A DNA stretch of 64,000 nucleotides from Anaerovoracaceae bacterium (GCA_045604065.1 JAZUNH010000059.1:37216-101215), one strand, 5' to 3'. Positions 3,001 through 50,146 are shown, counted from the stretch's first letter. A program made the numbers and translations. Notes: generated by a model from the letters alone, not told the origin.

Positions 3001-6000
3001 TCACGTTCACCGGCTACGCTACGATCACAGGAAAGGACGCTGGCTCATATCCTATGGAGCTCGAGGCGACAGACTTCGCGAACGCGAACAGCAACTTTGA
3101 GAATGTGGAGTTCGAGATCGTAGACGGAACGCTCGAGATCGAAAAGAGAGCTGTCACCGTAACAGCAGATGACCTGACCAAGGTATATGATAACGATCCA
3201 ACGAAACCTGCTCCTGAGCAGTACACAGCGACAGTCGATGGACTCGTTGCAGGCGAATCGATAATCTACACAGTAAAGAGAGATCCTGAAGATATCTCTG
3301 AGAACGTAGGCGAGCATACGATCTTAGCTACAGGAGAAGGTATCCAGGATAACTACACAGTTACCTACTATCCTGGAACTCTCACGATCACACCTGTCAC
3401 CGACAAGGTAACAGTAACGATCACAGAGAACAGCGGATCTGAGATGTATGACGGAGAGGAGCATACAGTCACAGGATATGAAGTCAGCATCGATAACGAG
3501 CTGTATACAGAAGACGACTTCACATTCAGCGGGACGGATTCAGTAAGCGGAACAGACGCCGGATCATATCCGATGGAGCTTGCCGCCACAGACTTCACGA
3601 ACATCAGCGATAACTTCACTAACGTAGAGTTCGTGATCGTTGACGGAACGCTCGAGATCAGCAAGAGAAGCGTGACGCTCACATCTGCCGACGACGACAA
3701 GGTATACGACGGAACGCCTCTTACGAACAGTACGGTAACAGTAACAGGCGACGGATTCGTTTCCGGAGAAGGCGCCACATACGACGTGACCGGAACGATC
3801 ACAGACTTTGGTGAAGTTCCTAACGCGTTCACATACACGCTGAACGAGGGAACGAAGGCTGATAACTATGACATCACGAAGGTCGAGGGAACTCTGAAGA
3901 TCACGCCTGTGACAGATAAGGTAACGGTAACGATCACGGAGAACAGCGGCTCAGAGAAGTACGACGGTACGAGGAAGACGGTCGAGGGATATACAGTCAG
4001 CATCGACAACAGGCTGTATACGGAGAACGACTTCTCATTCAGCGGCAATGCCACGATCGAGGGCACAGACGCCGGAACATACAACATGGAGCTCAAGGCG
4101 GCTGACTTCACGAACACGAGCGATAACTTCACTAACGTTGAGTTCGTGATCGTGGATGGAACACTCGAAATCGGCAAGAGGAGCGTGACGCTCACATCTG
4201 CTGACGACGAGAAGGTATACGACGGAACGCCTCTTACAAACAAGACAGTAACAGTATCCGGCGACGGCTTTGCCGCTGGCGAAGGCGCGACATATAACGT
4301 GACCGGAACGATCACAGACAAGGGCGAAACCGACAACACGTTCACATACACGCTGAACGACGGAACGAAGGCTGACAACTATGACATCGAAGTAGTCGAA
4401 GGAACCCTGAAGATCACGCCTGTCACCGAGAAGGTAACGGTAACGATCACAGGACACACAGGCACAGCAGTATACGACAGCGAGGAGCATACAGTCTCAG
4501 GATATGACGTGTATATCGATAATGACCTGTACACTGCGGCGTGCTTCACATTCAGCGGAACAGATTCAGTGACCGAAGCAGACGCGGGCACATATCCGAT
4601 GGGCCTCAAGAACTCCGACTTCGCGAACATAAGCGAGAACTTCACGAACGTAGTGTTCGAAGTCGAGGACGGATCGCTTGAGATCAGCAAGAGAGCTGTC
4701 ACGGTAACGATCACGGGTCATGAAGGAAGCGCGGTATACGACGGCGACGAGCACAGTGTATCCGGATATGACGCTAAGACAGAGGATAAGCTCTACGATA
4801 CGGGCGACATCACATACAGCGGAAACGCCGAGGCCAAGGGCAGGGATGCCGGAACATACGAGATGGGCCTCACGAAGGATCAGTTCGGAAACAGGAACGA
4901 CAACTTTGAGATCACGTTCGTCGTGACCGACGGAAGCCTGACGATCGATCCGTACAATATCAACAATGACCCTGACAACAGGATCACAGTAACAGACCCT
5001 GATGACACCGTATACAACGGCAAGGATCAGGAGCAGCCTGTGACGATCACAGACAGCAAGACGGGCGGAGAGCTCAAGGAAGGAAAGGACTTCGTTATCG
5101 AATACAGCGACGATGTCAGGAACGTCGGCGAGGTGACAGTTACGATCAAGGGCATCGGAAACTACGAGGATGAGGTCTTCAAGCAGTACAACATCACGCC
5201 TGCGGCCGTGAAAATCATAGCCGACGATAAGGAAGTGGTCTACGGAGATAAGCTGCCGAAGCTCACCGCGACGGTAACAGGTATCATCGGAAACGAGGAA
5301 GTCAAGTACGACCTCGAGATCGAGGATCCGGATGAGAAGCTCTCGAACGCAGGCGAATACACGATCGGAGTCATCCTTACCGATGAGCCTTCAAACGGCA
5401 TCAGGCTGAATGAAGTAAAGAACATCGGCAACTACACAGTCACGACTGAGAACGGAACGCTCACGATCGACGAGGCGCCTCTCACGATCAGCACGGGAAG
5501 CGACACCAAGCGCTACGACGGCACGGCTCTAACAAAGAAGCCTGCGACCGTGAAGGGCCTGAGGAACGGCGATAAGATCAAGGTAACGGTAACAGGGTCG
5601 CAGACACAGGTCGGATCCAGCAAGAACACGTTCAAGATCGACTGGCAGGATACAGACAAGCACAACTACGATCTTACGAAGAACGTAGGAACTCTGACAG
5701 TAACAGCCGCGAACAACCCGGCTCCTGTCAATCCGACGCCTGTAAATCCGACGCCGGCGCCGCAGCCGACACCGGATCCGGAGCCTGTAGAGGACACAGA
5801 AGTCCCACTGCCTGAGCCTGCGGATACAGTTCCTGAAGAGGAAGCACCGCTGCAGCTCGGAAGCTGGGCTCTGATCAACCTTATCTGCACGATCCTGACA
5901 GTCCTGCTCAGCCTGCTGGTACTCGTGATGTACCTCGGGAAGAACAAGAAGAAGGCTGACGAGGATGAGGATGAAGCTCAGACAGAAGATGCCGAGAAGG

Positions 6001-42754: not shown

Positions 42755-42769
42755 AAGGAGGTCATAGTA

Positions 42770-43561
42770 ATGAAAAAAAGCATGATCTTTGCATTTGCCG
42801 CGGTCCTTGCGGCTATGATCCTGATGACGGGAGCGGCGTATGCTGACGTGATAGAGATACATTCGGCAAAGGCCACGTCGCCTGACATCGACAGCATACC
42901 TGTGCTCTGGGGAGAGCAGAAAAGGCCGACTATTAATATAACCGAGCCTTCCGGCCTGGACTGCACGGTCACGACGACGGTCGACGGGACTTCGGGCAGC
43001 TGGTGGTGGCTGAAGTGGGATGCGGTGACCGAAGCCTGGCCTGGCGTCTATGACAAGGACCTCCCGTTTTCTGCCGGAAAATGGAAGCTGGAATGCCAGT
43101 TCAGGCTGGAGAATATCGGCGAGACCAAGTACGTCATAGCGGACGACTTCACTTTCACGGTGAACGGAAAGAAATGGGAGATACCGGAAGCGCCGCAGAA
43201 CTATGACACATACTGCATGGTCTTCGTGGACTCGCCTGTATACAGCCTAAGGATGGAAAACACCATGGACGTCACCGTCCAGAACAAGACCATAAAATAT
43301 AAGAAGCTGAAGAAGAAGTCGCAGACAGTCGCCCCGTTCGGCCTCTGCGATAATGAGGGGCCAGTCACATTCAAGAAGGTCAGCGTCACCAAGAAGAAGT
43401 TCAGCAAGTACTTCACCGTCGGAAAGACGAGCGGTAAGATCAGGGTGAAGAAAGGCCTCAGGAAAGGTAAGTACGTGGTGAAGGTCAAAGTCACCGCGGC
43501 GGGCAACGACACGTACAAGGCAAAGTCCCTGACGAGGAAAGTTACGATAAGAGTCAAATAA
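42770..43561 (+). CDS. Secreted protein with Lys-rich C-terminal domain
   Basis: Signal peptide MKKSMIFAFAAVLAAMILMTGAAYA; the last ~90 aa are strongly basic and beta-strand-like. Confidence 0.75.
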   Translation: MKKSMIFAFAAVLAAMILMTGAAYADVIEIHSAKATSPDIDSIPVLWGEQKRPTINITEPSGLDCTVTTTVDGTSGSWWWLKWDAVTEAWPGVYDKDLPFSAGKWKLECQFRLENIGETKYVIADDFTFTVNGKKWEIPEAPQNYDTYCMVFVDSPVYSLRMENTMDVTVQNKTIKYKKLKKKSQTVAPFGLCDNEGPVTFKKVSVTKKKFSKYFTVGKTSGKIRVKKGLRKGKYVVKVKVTAAGNDTYKAKSLTRKVTIRVK

Positions 43562-43570
43562 AGATGAGAA

Positions 43571-44518
43571 TTACAGAATAAACGGGGCGCCATGATCGGC
43601 GTCCTGTTTCAGGTATGGCTTTATCTTTTCTGCCAGCTTATCCGGTATCCTGCGGACGTTAAACTCATAGCCTTTATCACCCTCTAACCATCTTGTCCCT
43701 ACGAGGTAGTATTTACCGTCTCTTTTTGCGATCGTTATGCTGGCGTCCAGATTTCTATCATTGCTCATAATATCTACGTGGTATTCCCTGACACCTTCTT
43801 CTTTCCAGTCTTTATCACTGTTCAGCCATTCTGGAGTGACTGACTTTTTATGTCCGGTCTTTTTGAGCTCGTGGAAGATCTTCTGCCCTTCATCATCGAG
43901 TTTCCTGTCGTTTCGCATGAAGTAATAGTGGTCCAGATCATCGTAGTATTCAATGATCGCATCGAAGTCTTTCTTCTGACAGTAGAAGTATTCATCAAAA
44001 TTCATCAGTATCGGCATCCCTGTATCATTTTCAATGTAGAACATCTGGGACGAATAATCGGTGGCGGTGAGCCACTCGAGAGGAGTCAGGCGCTTTTTGA
44101 TGGTGAACGCGACGTTATCGTCGTACCATTTGTCGCTTCTGTCGTTCATGAACGTGTCCGTGTCAAAATCCATCCAGTCATTTCTGGTCTTCATCCAGAG
44201 GGACGTCCATTTTTCCCCTTCGAACGTGAAAGCCTGATTGTATCGGTCCCAGTAAACGGTGACGTCGGTAGGGTGCACGGATTCAGCGTGCAGTTCGATG
44301 ATCTCTTTATTATCGCTTCTTACGGCGACAAGAAATATTCCCATGAATACGAGAATGACAGCAATAGCTATTGCACGGGCTTTGTTCTTTCTGCTTATCT
44401 GGATCTTATCTTCGCTTTGTTTTCTGCCTGATCTGATCATCAGGAATACCAGCAGGCCGATCATGAGAAAAGCGATATGAGCAGCCACGTAAAAGAAAAA
44501 TGTCATTATGGTCATCAT
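43571..44518 (-). CDS. Hypothetical membrane-anchored protein (two N-terminal TMs), AT-rich
   Basis: 315-aa ORF filling the gap, two hydrophobic N-terminal segments, composition differing from flanking genes. Confidence 0.7.
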   Translation of the reverse strand: MMTIMTFFFYVAAHIAFLMIGLLVFLMIRSGRKQSEDKIQISRKNKARAIAIAVILVFMGIFLVAVRSDNKEIIELHAESVHPTDVTVYWDRYNQAFTFEGEKWTSLWMKTRNDWMDFDTDTFMNDRSDKWYDDNVAFTIKKRLTPLEWLTATDYSSQMFYIENDTGMPILMNFDEYFYCQKKDFDAIIEYYDDLDHYYFMRNDRKLDDEGQKIFHELKKTGHKKSVTPEWLNSDKDWKEEGVREYHVDIMSNDRNLDASITIAKRDGKYYLVGTRWLEGDKGYEFNVRRIPDKLAEKIKPYLKQDADHGAPFIL

Positions 44519-44611
44519 ATCAGTTCGCCTATATATAGTATAAATAATGATATAACATAATATTTAATATTACATTTAAAGAATAGTATTATATTTCTGA
44601 TTTGTCAAGAG

Positions 44612-44665
44612 ATAACCTACAGACGGTTGACATGTAGGTTATTGTAGGTTATGCTGATGTATAAT
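44612..44665 (+). promoter_or_regulatory. Sigma-A promoter with three copies of a 10-bp operator-like motif
   Basis: ATAACCTACA 44612-21, TGTAGGTTAT 44633-42, TGTAGGTTAT 44643-52; TTGACA 44627-32, N17, TATGCT 44650-55; TATAAT 44660-65. Confidence 0.75.
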
Positions 44666-44682
44666 AAAATGGAGGAGGACAG

Positions 44683-46026
44683 ATGGCGGAAGACAGGATC
44701 AGCGAGCTGAAAAAGAGAATAGAAGAGCTCCCTAAAGGCTACATTTCCCGGAAGGTCATATCAGGGAAAGAGCATCTGTATCTCCAGTGGAGAGACGGAA
44801 GCAATATAAGGAGCAGGTATATAAAGGAGTCGGAAAAGGAATCGTTCATCGCCGCTATAGAGGAAAGGAAAGCTCTGCAGGAGGAGCTTTCTGTTGCCGA
44901 AGGCAGGGTTGAATACAAGGCGGCTCCGAGATACTATCTCAAATGGGGCGACGATGTCGTAGGGGAGATCAGGAATGATCTCTGTGTTCAGTTCGTTTCT
45001 CCTGACCTGAATCAGACTGTAAAGGAATACGTGTCTGAGACAGGCATATGGAGCAGAGATGATCTTGTCGATTTTCTCAAGGACAGGATAGTAAGTCCAT
45101 ACAGGAGGGATATCGAGCAGATCCTCGCGAGACTTGGCCTTTCCTCATATGATGTAATTGATGTTGCGCTGGCAACGCATGCTGTGTCGGCAAAAGACAT
45201 GTTCTGGATCTCAGAGACCGCGGACGCACATTTCAGTGACGCAGTAACAGATGTTTTCGATTCGGTGTTCAGCCGCAGGGAGGATCTTACGGGAGACAGC
45301 GTTGATACTCCCGAGGGGGAGAATGTAAAGCGCTACGGAGTATACGATGGAAAGTACGGGATATATAAGAGGCGTCTCAGCCCGCTGACAACAGATATCG
45401 AGTCTGAGATCGCGGTCTATAGGCTTGCTGATCTTCTGGGCGTTCCGTGCTGCCCGTGTTTCAGAACAGATCAGGACACAGTTTTCTCTGAATTTGAATA
45501 TGACTTTTCAAAGGAGTTCATAATACACTTCAGACATATCTTAAAAAAGCAGAGCTCCGGAGACTACCTTATGGATCTGATATCAGCGCGTCCGGGGTAC
45601 CTTAAGGATCTTGCCCGGATGATCTGTCTTGATTTCATCACGAGGCAGGATGACCGGCACCTTTCCAACATAGCCGTAAAGATGTCAGAAGAACCCAGAG
45701 GATCAGAGGAGACGTTCTACCCGCTGTATGATAACGGGAGGAGCCTTTTCTATGAAGATACGGAAGAGACCGCGGCAAGCGCGGCGGATGACGTAGAAAA
45801 GTATGCAACTTCCTTTGGACCTTCCGGGTCATATCTTGACCATGTGCGGATTCTGTCTGACATGGGGATCAGTTTCGGCAGACTGATCGACCTTGACATC
45901 GATACGAAAAAGATAGAAGAAGTGCTTACGGACTCAGGCCTGACAGGATACAGACTGGAAGGCTCGATCAAATGGATAGCAGCGTGCCTGGATATCCTGA
46001 AGTCACTTGACAAAGATAAGCCCTGA
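44683..46026 (+). CDS. HipA-like (PI3K/PI4K-fold) kinase with extra N-terminal domain
   Basis: GGAGGAGG RBS; YK, ESEIAVY, LDFITRQDDRHLSNIAV (DRH..N) and PLYDNGRSL (DNG) kinase motifs; HipA-N-like middle region. Confidence 0.75.
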   Translation: MAEDRISELKKRIEELPKGYISRKVISGKEHLYLQWRDGSNIRSRYIKESEKESFIAAIEERKALQEELSVAEGRVEYKAAPRYYLKWGDDVVGEIRNDLCVQFVSPDLNQTVKEYVSETGIWSRDDLVDFLKDRIVSPYRRDIEQILARLGLSSYDVIDVALATHAVSAKDMFWISETADAHFSDAVTDVFDSVFSRREDLTGDSVDTPEGENVKRYGVYDGKYGIYKRRLSPLTTDIESEIAVYRLADLLGVPCCPCFRTDQDTVFSEFEYDFSKEFIIHFRHILKKQSSGDYLMDLISARPGYLKDLARMICLDFITRQDDRHLSNIAVKMSEEPRGSEETFYPLYDNGRSLFYEDTEETAASAADDVEKYATSFGPSGSYLDHVRILSDMGISFGRLIDLDIDTKKIEEVLTDSGLTGYRLEGSIKWIAACLDILKSLDKDKP

Positions 46027-46066
46027 GCGTACAATTTCAATAGTTGAAAGAAAGGCGGGAATCACT

Positions 46067-46210
46067 ATGGAAAGAATCAAGACACTGGAAACAAGAGATC
46101 TTAAAGCCAGCATGGAGAACGGCGGATGCGGCGAGTGCCAGACGTCATGCCAGTCAGCATGCAAGACATCATGCGGCGTTGCCAACCAGAAGTGCGAGAA
46201 AGATCAGTAA
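46067..46210 (+). CDS. scfA: Six-cysteine ranthipeptide SCIFF precursor
   Basis: MERIKTL...GGCGECQTSCQSACKTSCGVANQKCE matches the SCIFF signature. Confidence 0.97.
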   Translation: MERIKTLETRDLKASMENGGCGECQTSCQSACKTSCGVANQKCEKDQ

Positions 46211-47596
46211 ATGATACATCAGTACAAACTGAACGGATATAATATCGTTCTTGACGTTAACAGCGGGTCTGTACATTATGTGGATGATGTCTGCTATGAC
46301 ATCATCCGTTCTTTTTGTGACGCTGAAGAAGAAGGTAAGGAGCCTGACCTCGCCGCGGTCAAAGCCGATGTCATCAGCAGATATCCGGGCGAGACGGACG
46401 AATCGGTCGAAGCCGCTTTCCGCGACATAGATGAGCTGAAGAAGCAGGGGAAGCTGTTCACGCCTGACATCTATAAGCCTAAGGCGACGTACCTCAAGAA
46501 CAGGCACACGGAGATCAAAGCCCTCTGCCTTCACGTCGCTCATACGTGTAACCTGAACTGCGAGTACTGCTTCGCGAGCCAGGGCAAGTTCCACGGCGAG
46601 AGAGCTCTGATGAGCCTCGATACCGCAAAGCGCGCGATGGACTTCCTGATCGAGAACTCCGGGAATCACGTCAATCTCGAAGTCGACTTCTTCGGCGGCG
46701 AGCCTCTCATGAACTGGGACGTGGTAAAGGGGACGGTCGAATACGCCCGGTCCATAGAGAAGGAGCATCACAAGAATTTCCGCTTCACGCTCACGACCAA
46801 CGGAGTCGGGATAAACGACGAGGTCATCGACTTTGTGAACAGAGAGTGCCACAACGTTGTGCTGAGCCTCGACGGCAGGAAAGAGGTGCACGACGCGCTC
46901 CGCAAGACGATAACGGGCGAGGGAAGCTACGACATGATAGTGCCGAAGTTCCAGAAGCTCGTCAAGGCGCGCGGCGGGAAGAACTACTACATGAGAGGGA
47001 CCTTTACACACGCGAACGTGGATTTCACCAACGACATCTTCCACATGGCGGATCTCGGGTTCGACCAGCTCTCGATGGAGCCTGTCGTCTGCAGCCCGGA
47101 CGAGCCGTATGCCCTTACTGAAGAGGACAAGGAGAAGATATACGAGCAGTATGAGATCCTTGCGAAGGACATGCTGCGCCGTGAGAAAGAGGGACGTCCT
47201 ATCACCTTCTATCACTACATGATCGACCTTACCGCGGGGCCGTGTATCTACAAGAGGATATCCGGCTGCGGCTCCGGTACGGAATACTTCGCGGTGACGC
47301 CGTGGGGAGATCTTTATCCGTGCCACCAGTTCGTCGGGGAGACAAAGTTCAAAATGGGAGACATCTGGAACGGGATAGACAGGGAAGACATAAAAGAAGA
47401 GTTCAAGATGTGCAACGTGTACGCGCGTGAGGAGTGCAGGAAGTGCTGGGCGAGGCTATACTGCTCAGGAGGCTGCGCCGCGAACGCATATCACGGGACC
47501 GGTTCCGTAACGGGCGTGTACGAGTACGGATGCGATCTCTTCAGGAAGAGGATCGAGTGCGCGCTCATGATGAAAGTCGCGGAGGCTGAGCTATGA
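46211..47596 (+). CDS. scfB: SCIFF radical SAM/SPASM maturase
   Basis: MIHQYKLNGYNIVLD RRE-like start; CNLNCEYC; FFGGEPL; SPASM CGSG...GDLYPCHQF...C..CWARLYCSGGCAAN. Confidence 0.96.
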   Translation: MIHQYKLNGYNIVLDVNSGSVHYVDDVCYDIIRSFCDAEEEGKEPDLAAVKADVISRYPGETDESVEAAFRDIDELKKQGKLFTPDIYKPKATYLKNRHTEIKALCLHVAHTCNLNCEYCFASQGKFHGERALMSLDTAKRAMDFLIENSGNHVNLEVDFFGGEPLMNWDVVKGTVEYARSIEKEHHKNFRFTLTTNGVGINDEVIDFVNRECHNVVLSLDGRKEVHDALRKTITGEGSYDMIVPKFQKLVKARGGKNYYMRGTFTHANVDFTNDIFHMADLGFDQLSMEPVVCSPDEPYALTEEDKEKIYEQYEILAKDMLRREKEGRPITFYHYMIDLTAGPCIYKRISGCGSGTEYFAVTPWGDLYPCHQFVGETKFKMGDIWNGIDREDIKEEFKMCNVYAREECRKCWARLYCSGGCAANAYHGTGSVTGVYEYGCDLFRKRIECALMMKVAEAEL

Positions 47597-48358: not shown

Positions 48359-48400
48359 CTTGTATAGTGAGTGAGTATATCCATTTTTGGAGGCACAAAA

Positions 48401-50146
48401 ATGAGCGATAGACTGGAAAAACTGTTCACACTGACCGACATTGAGAACCTTGAAGGCGCGCCTGTAACTATCGAGGCTGGCGGACTTATCAAGGATACCA
48501 AGACCGGCCGTGTGTTGGCCAGAATGTATTTCAAGAACTGCGCGGACAAGCCTTTAAGCTCTGTCCTTGTCGGCTTCAGGCCGATGGGGGAGAACGGAAG
48601 GGCCATCTCCGGGATGCGCGACTATCTGTATGACGCGAAGGGCGTTCCTGTAGGGGAGATCTTCGGCGACCAGACGGGCATCCTGTTCGATAATAACGAT
48701 ACAAAGTCTTTCTCAGCCGATGTTGAGGAAGTCGATTTTGAGGACGGCGGATACTGGGATGCCGCCGAGGAAAAGAAAAAGGCGGAGGAGCTCAAGCTCA
48801 TCGTTCCTGAGGAGAAGGAACAGCCTGAGCAGGTGCCTGAGATGTGGGAGAAGCCTGCTGAGAAGACGAGCGCGCCTGCCGTCTGGGATGAGGACACCCA
48901 TGAGGACGAGCCTCATTCAGCTGAGATATACGGCGCCGCCGTGGTGGAGCAGACGTTCGAAGGGCCTGACAACGGCGATTTTGTTCCGGCAAGCATGGAG
49001 ACGAGGCAGCTCGGGCATGAAGAAAGACCTGCACTTGAAGAGCAGACTGACGCGTTCAGAAAAGAAGAGCAGAAGGAGGTCATCGAGCTGGAGGGGCCGT
49101 CTGAGGAAGAACAGCCTGTGATAGAGCTCGGCGGTCCGACAGAAGAAGCGGCCGAAGAGGCTCCTGCCGAGGAAGAGCCGATCAGCGAGCTCGTTCCTGA
49201 AGAGCCTGCGGATATAGAAGCGTACTTTGAGAAGCCGGCTGAAGAGACTCCGGCTGAAGCGCCTGCTGAGACTCCAGTACAGGAACCTGCCGAGGAGCCG
49301 GAAGAGCCGGAAAGGCCTGTAAGGCTTGCCGACATGTATGGCGGAGCGGTCGTTGCGTCGGAGCTTGCATCATATGCGGCGGCATACGAAAAGAGAATAG
49401 AGACTCCTGAAGAGGAGCCTGAAGTGTCTGCTGAGACTCCGGCACAGGAACCTGTCGAGGAGCCGGCGCCGATCGAAGAACTCGTTCCTGAAGAGCCTGC
49501 AGATATAGAAGCGTATTTTGAGACGCCGGAAGAAGCGCCTGCTGAGGCACCTGCACAGGAGCCTGTCGAGGAGCCTGCGCCTGCTGAAGAAGTACAGCCA
49601 GCGCCTGTCGAGGAGCCGGCACCTGTCGAAGAAGCACAGCCTGAGCCTGTAAAAGAGCCAGCTCCTGAAGAAGATAATCAGTGGGCCGGATATGGGTTCG
49701 CACAGCCTGAGGAGGAAAAGCCTGAAGAAAAGCCGTTCACACTTACTCCTGCTGAGCCGGAGGAGACAAAGCCGGAGGAGGCGGAGCCTGTTCAGGAACA
49801 GGAATACATACCTAAGATAGAAGATACGATAGAGCTTCCTAAGGCAGTCGCGCCTGAAAAAGACGCGGAAGACGCGGAGGAGATCCTCGCCGCGATAGCG
49901 GCTAAGGAAGAGCCTGTGGAAAAGCCTGAAGAGGAAAAGAAGGAAGAGACAGAAGAAGCAGCCGCTCCTGCCGCTCAGAAAGCCGACGTGGTGTTTGCCC
50001 AGGAAGAGGAAGTCATTCCGTCGATCATACAGGATAAAGAAAAAGCGCTCACCGGTGAAGACCACAGCGGGCGCAATCTTATGAACATAGTAGTATTCGG
50101 AGGGATAGCCCTCATAATACTTCTGGTGCTTCTTCTCAAAATGTAG
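48401..50146 (+). CDS. Protein with N-terminal beta-sandwich-like domain, acidic E/P/A-rich repeats and terminal TM helix
   Basis: GGAGG RBS before ATG 48401; ELVPEEPADIEAYFE repeated twice; ends IVVFGGIALIILLVLLLKM. Confidence 0.75.
   Translation: MSDRLEKLFTLTDIENLEGAPVTIEAGGLIKDTKTGRVLARMYFKNCADKPLSSVLVGFRPMGENGRAISGMRDYLYDAKGVPVGEIFGDQTGILFDNNDTKSFSADVEEVDFEDGGYWDAAEEKKKAEELKLIVPEEKEQPEQVPEMWEKPAEKTSAPAVWDEDTHEDEPHSAEIYGAAVVEQTFEGPDNGDFVPASMETRQLGHEERPALEEQTDAFRKEEQKEVIELEGPSEEEQPVIELGGPTEEAAEEAPAEEEPISELVPEEPADIEAYFEKPAEETPAEAPAETPVQEPAEEPEEPERPVRLADMYGGAVVASELASYAAAYEKRIETPEEEPEVSAETPAQEPVEEPAPIEELVPEEPADIEAYFETPEEAPAEAPAQEPVEEPAPAEEVQPAPVEEPAPVEEAQPEPVKEPAPEEDNQWAGYGFAQPEEEKPEEKPFTLTPAEPEETKPEEAEPVQEQEYIPKIEDTIELPKAVAPEKDAEDAEEILAAIAAKEEPVEKPEEEKKEETEEAAAPAAQKADVVFAQEEEVIPSIIQDKEKALTGEDHSGRNLMNIVVFGGIALIILLVLLLKM

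Follow-up and report, generated by a model that had tools for sequence, protein, structure and literature searches.

How is a HipA-like kinase kept in check when no antitoxin gene accompanies it? The question is raised by a gene at positions 44683-46026 (plus strand) of a 64,000-nucleotide stretch of DNA from an Anaerovoracaceae bacterium (GCA_045604065.1, JAZUNH010000059.1:37216-101215), this whole stretch being termed the window and all positions being counted from its first letter. The original prediction, drawn from the DNA alone, described the gene as a monocistronic kinase fused to an uncharacterised N-terminal domain, here called the head, and regulating itself. The proposed open reading frame (ORF) is confirmed: it opens at the first ATG after a stop, with a Shine-Dalgarno sequence, GGAGGAGG, read from the sequence at 44671-44678 (plus strand), 4 nt before that ATG, and encodes 447 amino acids arranged as head, linker, N-subdomain, kinase core and C-terminal helical region. 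As had been noted, no helix-turn-helix (HTH) or hipB antitoxin gene lies upstream, the neighbour on that side being a divergent gene for a membrane protein, and clustering of all the neighbours of 45 kinase loci revealed no conserved partner that could be a hidden antitoxin. The description of the gene as solitary thus holds, no neighbour being kept across the 45 loci, and its assignment as a type II toxin-antitoxin system by an adjacent antitoxin gene was rejected for want of any conserved adjacent gene.

We consider that the gene is probably a solitary acquired cassette in which a self-repressing head is combined with a HipA/CtkA-like kinase that slows or arrests growth. The head would bind a 10-bp site, TGTAGGTTAT, of which three copies lie at the kinase promoter; the bound sites would block RNA polymerase and the protein would repress its own synthesis, the head performing in cis the operator-binding task of HipB in hipBA. 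The N-subdomain and core would together form a remote HipA/CtkA-superfamily kinase with a complete catalytic apparatus which, by analogy with HipA and HipH, would phosphorylate host proteins and slow or arrest growth when its level or activity rises. Autophosphorylation of S206 in the Gly-rich loop might add a second brake.

The head and its putative operator

Three perfect 10-bp sites were found over the kinase promoter, in agreement with the earlier claim of a triple operator. The promoter is of sigma-70 type (44627-44655, plus strand), with TTGACA at 44627-32, a 17-nt spacer and TATGCT at 44650-55, a 10/12 match. Site 1 (44612-44621, minus strand) lies just upstream of the -35 box, where it reads ATAACCTACA, the reverse complement of TGTAGGTTAT; an inverted equivalent is present in five out of five loci carrying the same head. 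Sites 2 (44633-44642) and 3 (44643-44652), both on the plus strand, are exact tandem copies of TGTAGGTTAT that between them wholly occupy the spacer, site 3 also overlapping the -10 box. The centres of the sites are 21 and 10 bp apart, placing all three on one face of the DNA. Since the -35 flank, the spacer and the -10 box all lie under these sites, binding would repress the gene's own transcription, and to judge from the DNA this appears to be an autoregulated promoter with repeated operators of the kind seen in type II toxin-antitoxin systems.

Elsewhere in the 1.58-Mb genome the site is scarce: the exact 10-mer occurs four times, three of them at the kinase promoter, and no second cluster exists even when one mismatch is allowed. 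Accordingly, the idea that the head controls further genes of this genome was rejected, the only operator cluster being at its own promoter. The fourth exact copy stands singly on another contig (C26, 29465-29474), at about chance frequency (2.6 expected).

Comparison of homologous loci provides the principal evidence that the head reads these sites. The five same-head loci, about 52-58% identical and from unrelated genomic contexts and organisms, all carry the arrangement TAACCTACA-(3-7 nt)-TTGACA-TGTAGGTTAT-T(T)GTAGGTTATAAT, the -10 lying within the third site. The HTH_17-headed relatives, which share the kinase and not the head, carry the promoter TATCGGAACAAT-n5-TTGAYA-TTGTTCCGATA; here the CGGAACAAT inverted repeat around the -35 is present in at least two copies in 21 of 25 relatives and in one copy in the other four. 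Neither operator motif is found in nine of 11 head-less copies. One head-less locus, L060, was discarded as an exception, its motif matches being chance one-mismatch matches in coding DNA; a small ORF before its kinase copy (about 4650-4990) resembles a RelE/ParE-type toxin by eye. At another, L054, an HTH_17-type inverted repeat, TCGGGACAAT ... TTGTTCCGA, is retained upstream (about 3730-3775), which suggests that the head has been lost and the operator left as a relic. The operator changes when the head changes, as expected if the head reads the operator, and the same design recurs in more than 60 other head-bearing genes, considered below. The proposed self-regulation through the triple operator thus stands: autorepression of the kinase gene by its head is strongly supported by these comparisons, and we strongly infer that the head binds the three sites and represses its own gene.

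The head itself (44683-44910, plus strand; amino acids 1-76) is a putative sequence-specific DNA-binding module composed of a helix, a three-stranded antiparallel sheet and a long helix. In the AlphaFold2 model these correspond to helix 2-15, strands 20-26, 29-38 and 41-47, and helix 49-72, with predicted local distance difference test (pLDDT) values of about 90-96; modelled alone, the head gives 89.6. The fold is not an HTH in these models. The earlier description of a distinct basic head is right as to a folded domain, and the basic character is confined to the β-sheet part, amino acids 17-48 (isoelectric point, pI, 10.4), the whole head having a pI of 8.0. Weak similarity to DUF6788 (PF20586) was seen as sub-threshold matches in 17 of 31 related heads (best E 0.0019; gathering threshold 27.2 bits); the window head has no match at E<=10, although precomputed tables list PF20586 for the protein, and DUF6788 is not mentioned in the literature searched. 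Weak Foldseek matches include integrase arm-binding and AP2 domains (3rmp, 3jtz, 6sy0). The likeness to DUF6788, arm-binding and AP2 domains lies in a three-stranded sheet packed on a helix, all of these matches being below significance, and kinship with the arm-binding or AP2 domains is no more than a lead.

On a rival view suggested by work on HipH, the head would act less as a repressor than as a means of bringing the kinase to chromosomal sites. HipH is reported to be nucleoid-localised and not to be toxic without its HTH (eLife 2024, PMC11452175), the same work proposing c-di-GMP as a small-molecule antitoxin; this rival arises because the HipH HTH is reported to be needed for toxicity, and the basic sheet region of the head would suit it. 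We regard it as very unlikely: no perfect site cluster exists away from the promoter of the gene itself, every lineage has sites overlapping the -35, spacer and -10, an arrangement typical of repressors, and unrelated effectors carry the same head.

A predicted kinase remote from HipA

All the kinase motifs named in the original prediction are present where it placed them, and the core is intact. The N-subdomain (44920-45282, amino acids 80-200), the kinase core (45283-45807, amino acids 201-375) and the C-terminal helical region (45808-46023, amino acids 376-447), all on the plus strand, follow the head in that order, the last being conserved in the family. The core contains the Gly-rich-loop region GDSVDTPEGENVKRYG (45292-45339, amino acids 204-219), in which S206 is nearly invariant and which includes the Gly-rich-loop motif DTPEGENVKRY (amino acids 208-218). 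There follow IYK (amino acids 227-229), containing K229; ESE (amino acids 240-242), containing E240 and E242; the catalytic loop DDRHLSN (45649-45669, amino acids 323-329); and DNG (45730-45738, amino acids 350-352), with the Mg-binding Asp. In an alignment of 120 homologues P210, G212, N214, K216, R217, Y218, K229, E240, E242, D324, R325, H326, N329, D350 and G352 are invariant. D324, N329 and D350 pair with HipA D309, N314 and the Mg-binding D332, respectively, in an alignment that is not itself significant. Judged by its residues, the catalytic apparatus appears complete, comprising a D-x-x-x-x-N loop, a Mg-binding Asp, an ATP-binding Lys and a Gly-rich loop. By analogy with HipA and HipT, S206 is a candidate autophosphorylation site; it falls within amino acids 194-211, before the Gly-rich loop, the only low-confidence segment of the structure model.

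That model, built with AlphaFold2 on 120 homologues, has a pLDDT of 87.8. Foldseek searches with it gave CtkA as the best match (3akj/3akk/3akl; E 4e-7, template modelling (TM) score 0.58 on the target), followed by HipA of Shewanella and Escherichia coli (4pu3/3tpv/3dnv; E about 1e-5) and then type II PI4K (E 2.6e-4). The suggested HipA/PI3K-like fold is therefore borne out at the level of predicted structure, which indicates a bilobal HipA/CtkA/PI3-4K-like kinase fold, and an active HipA-superfamily kinase is predicted.

Profile searches were less informative as to the name of the family. Pfam PI3_PI4_kinase gave a sub-threshold 19 bits, Pfam HipA_N and Couple_hipA gave no match, the NCBIfam search of the protein gave none, and only weak matches to families of unknown function were found in PHROGs. 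Searches of PDB sequences with the protein and with family, head and N-subdomain profiles yielded nothing significant, and OspA matches to the head were discarded as composition artefacts of β-hairpins. The 'HipA-N-like middle region' of the original prediction gains no direct support from these results. Amino acids 80-200 do prove to be homologous to the separate PDC-M03B protein, which 17 of the 24 members of the family match (best E 1.8e-7), and to align with the same region of kinases that combine the head with HipA_C. The kinase core matches the PADLOC candidate PDC-M03A (E 1.2e-8). From these two matches the protein is therefore read as head, B-like and A-like parts in one chain; as a PDC-M03 A/B gene pair it does not qualify, both parts belonging to a single ORF that also encodes the head.

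Membership of the Hip superfamily was reached through a sister family. This larger family shares its head and middle region with that of the window kinase; its members are 450-515 amino acids long and pass HipA_C at 35.5-42 bits, compared with the gathering threshold of 30.5. Aligned by hhalign, the window family and the sister family match over 431 columns with E 2e-40, and since the sister family passes HipA_C and aligns in this way, Hip-superfamily homology is established. The sister family aligns with E. coli HipH at E 0.0063 and probability 6%, so that clade X is not assigned by sequence, and hhalign comparison with the single E. coli HipA and HipH sequences aligned only the catalytic loop.

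The closest known parallel is HipH/YjjJ of E. coli K-12 (Hip clade X), a monocistronic, HTH-headed protein with no linked antitoxin gene (PMC8262856) that is a growth-inhibiting kinase with RpmE and CsrA as substrates (PMC8262856, PMC9948734). Both are monocistronic HipA-superfamily Ser/Thr kinases of about 440 amino acids, and in both an N-terminal DNA-binding domain appears, here on sequence grounds, to replace a separate HipB. They differ in the head, an HTH there and a helix/three-strand sheet/helix here; in the kinase, which is here too diverged for significant alignment; in host, Proteobacteria versus Clostridia; and in the triple operator over the promoter, evidence for which was not found for hipH in the literature searched. 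With HipBA the present kinase shares the fold, the aligned catalytic Asp, Asn and Mg-binding Asp, and repeated operators over the promoter that suggest autorepression. HipB, however, is absent, a non-HTH head would supply DNA binding in cis, neutralisation by a partner protein cannot apply, and the Pfam HipA_C and HipA_N thresholds are missed. HipBST offers a parallel of arrangement: PDC-M03B and PDC-M03A occur elsewhere as two genes and their counterparts are fused here, as HipS plus HipT compare with HipA. It differs in that the protein here combines every part in one chain, with another domain as the regulator. The H. pylori kinase CtkA (JHP940 of Helicobacter pylori; 3AKJ/3AKK/3AKL), the best structural match to the core, is likewise an accessory-genome kinase, but lacks both head and N-subdomain, shows 15-17% sequence identity and is reported to have a different biological role. 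The likeness to the PDC-M03, PDC-S01 and PDC-S02 group is partial, core and N-subdomain matching PDC-M03A and PDC-M03B in what is here a one-gene fusion with an added head.

Distribution and surroundings of the kinase gene

Homologues of the kinase number more than 1000, every named one being annotated 'hypothetical protein', and fall into three architectures: with this head (about 30 of the closest), with an HTH_17 head (most) and head-less. In a sample of 400 species from the class, 10 (about 2.5%) had the kinase, three of those ten copies being broken or fragmentary. In a search of 28 species genomes of the genus the complete gene was found in no other; two have only short fragments, which are a head-only ORF in one and, in the other, a piece at a contig end that comprises the head and the opening ~60 N-subdomain residues. 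The slot between scpB/aroK and the gene for the six-cysteine peptide SCIFF (window 42755-46066; L022 2229-5548; L023 2666-4513) is variable in the genus: relatives have two tandem transposase-like ORFs of ~486 amino acids, or one of 615, and this genome has genes for a secreted protein and a membrane protein and the kinase gene. G+C content at third codon positions (GC3) is 0.55 in the kinase gene versus 0.69-0.77 in flanking core genes. On the strength of the sporadic distribution, the transposase slot in relatives and the low GC3, the kinase gene is an accessory, horizontally moving single-gene cassette.

The gene might instead stabilise a mobile element that carries it, as an addiction module acting by post-segregational killing or maintenance. 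In one HTH_17-headed lineage it does belong to a conjugative element, flanked by a DUF3801 gene on one side and the gene for a TraG/VirD4 coupling protein on the other, and the window copy occupies a slot taken by insertion sequence (IS) elements in relatives. A general link to conjugative elements was nevertheless ruled out, that context being confined to L009-L011 among 45 loci; no integrase, relaxase or repeat boundaries lie near the window copy or its closest relatives, the gene is almost absent from the plasmid collection, and a single stable protein offers no obvious mechanism of differential decay. The idea is accordingly thought highly improbable.

Several observations weigh against the self-repressing toxin cassette preferred here. 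Foldseek with the head alone gave no significant match (best E 0.2) and, since no structural match is significant, the case for DNA binding by the head is drawn entirely from comparative genomics. The -10 box of the window promoter, TATGCT, is weaker than the TATAAT that relatives have embedded in site 3. The kinase protein scores 18.1 bits against Pfam HipA_C (PF07804; E 0.0023), short of the gathering threshold of 30.5, and direct comparison of sequences does not relate it significantly to HipA, HipH or a protein of solved structure. Sequenced phage and plasmid collections contain almost no copies of the gene, and no defence-island context was seen at the locus, where the neighbours are housekeeping genes. 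Finally, head-less copies exist with no conserved partner, which suggests that cells can tolerate the kinase when the head is missing; this weakens the toxin reading.

The persistence of those partnerless head-less copies would equally suit an ordinary signalling kinase or transcription factor without toxicity, its head doing no more than adjusting the level of the protein, which would neither arrest growth nor take part in conflict. The normal predicted sigma-70-type promoter and strong ribosome-binding site are compatible with such a role, as is the finding that HipH does not raise antibiotic tolerance (PMC9948734). Yet the genome's only operator cluster is the gene's own promoter and there is therefore no regulon, presence in so few species with three broken or fragmentary copies in ten is hard to match with a regulatory duty, the other partners of the head are nucleases, STAND-type ATPases and a nucleotidyltransferase of toxin-antitoxin type, and characterised members of the HipA family inhibit growth when overproduced (PMC8262856, PMC9948734). 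We judge this alternative unlikely. For the self-repressing toxin cassette, arrest of growth once the kinase is derepressed or activated, its target and trigger, the release by stress or phage that the original prediction proposed, and a part in defence against phages or in other conflicts are only weakly inferred, from the analogy with HipA and HipH and from the matches to PADLOC candidates.

The immediate neighbours of the gene can be described briefly. Upstream, the divergent gene for a 315-residue membrane protein (43571-44518, minus strand) has a GC3 of 0.58, compared with the values for flanking core genes given above, and matches no Pfam family; it may have arrived together with the kinase gene, although the pairing is not conserved at other loci. 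Directly downstream of the kinase gene are the SCIFF gene (46067-46210; TIGR03973, 84 bits) and, after it, the gene for the radical-SAM maturase ScfB (46211-47596; TIGR03974, 756 bits), an ordinary housekeeping pair of Clostridia; a promoter-like site for the pair, TTGACA-17-TACAAT (46007-46035), sits within the 3' end of the kinase gene. Further along, at 48371-50146, is a gene for a 591-residue protein with no Pfam match, in which E, P and A are highly abundant; it has long internal repeats and, at the C terminus, a transmembrane segment.

The head in other genes

A survey of architectures sharing the head revealed several unrelated effectors. Besides kinases of the HipA_C type, it is fused to AAA_14/STAND-type ATPases (about 620 amino acids), to an AAA-ATPase_like protein with PDDEXK_9 and to a YhcG nuclease, and it is present in 35 of 400 sampled Clostridia species (about 9%). 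It also occurs as a stand-alone 97-residue gene at the locus L094 (2962-3887), where an ATGA overlap joins it to a gene for a 210-residue PF12281 (NTP_transf_8) nucleotidyltransferase and four TGTAGGTTAA sites lie upstream; the pair looks like a two-gene operon resembling a toxin-antitoxin system, with the head in the antitoxin position.

The promoters of these other head genes hold GGTTA/GGGTA repeats. GGTTA sites were found in 63 of 64 distinct promoters, at least two in 39 of them; for comparison, background windows of 120 nt average 0.11 sites, with at least two in 0.7% of them. In a held-out set from species genomes the same layout is seen with diverged half-sites, GGGTATAA. Heads of YYHRVTRDGK type are preceded by GTTATACCC-TTGACA-...GGGTATAAT-GGGTATAAC, once again one inverted and two tandem copies. 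Promoters with GTTATACCC, GGGTATAAT and GGGTATAAC are carried by head proteins of about 570-585 amino acids in the species genomes (L162-L171), which have YYHR(V/I)T-type heads; head proteins of similar length elsewhere are AAA_14 ATPases. Details of the site also follow residues of the head: a TGT[A/G] flank accompanies 13 of 19 distinct heads with Arg37 versus one of 43 with another residue, counts which span several architectures and are not phylogenetically independent, and the lone non-Arg37 case is an alignment shift.

Three of the partner families match candidates in PADLOC, namely PDC-M03A, PDC-S01 (the AAA_14 ATPase) and PDC-S02 (the YhcG nuclease), and this raises the possibility of a single-gene anti-phage abortive-infection system, in which infection would activate or derepress the kinase, host or phage proteins would be phosphorylated and phage growth would stop. 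The core's match to PDC-M03A and that of the N-subdomain to PDC-M03B speak for it, as do the matches of the other head-fused effectors to PDC-S01 and PDC-S02, the origin of the PDC families as predictions from genes embedded in BREX, DISARM, restriction-modification (RM) and Hma systems (bioRxiv 10.1101/2024.01.29.577857), and the sporadic distribution with apparent horizontal acquisition. The PDC systems are, however, phage-defence candidates by prediction only (bioRxiv 10.1101/2024.01.29.577857), no more than part of each profile is matched, housekeeping neighbours surround the gene here and at the four other same-head loci, and no trigger or sensor domain is evident. We consider such a system rather unlikely for this gene.

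A broader proposal, possible if still doubtful, is that the head with its GGTTA/GGGTA operators is a portable 'safety cassette': a new class of sequence-specific DNA-binding domain with a readable code, of which Arg37 and the TGT flank would be an example. Fused in cis, it would keep single-gene effectors that are otherwise dangerous tightly self-repressed, so that they could spread horizontally and serve as toxin or abortive-infection systems made of one gene. Those meant are HipA-like kinases, STAND/AAA_14 ATPases, PD-(D/E)XK nucleases and an AbiEii-like nucleotidyltransferase.

The gene had been put forward as the best candidate in the window for an undescribed system. That is fair for the head and for this kinase subfamily; the concept, in contrast, was already described in HipH/YjjJ (PMC8262856, PMC9948734). 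No description of the head domain, the operator code, the exchange of head and operator together or the CtkA-like kinase branch was found in the literature searched. This branch gives the Hip kinase superfamily a remote CtkA-like lineage from Firmicutes of gut and rumen, a group under-represented in the published phylogeny, of which Firmicutes make up 5% (PMC8262856). As to how HipA homologues without antitoxins, such as HipH, are controlled, the family gives a clean answer for the transcriptional part, in the form of a 41-bp operator and a 76-residue head. The same combination of head and operator drives many other suspected toxin and defence genes in gut and rumen bacteria and, its binding motif being readable from genomes, provides a handle on the regulation of several candidate defence families.

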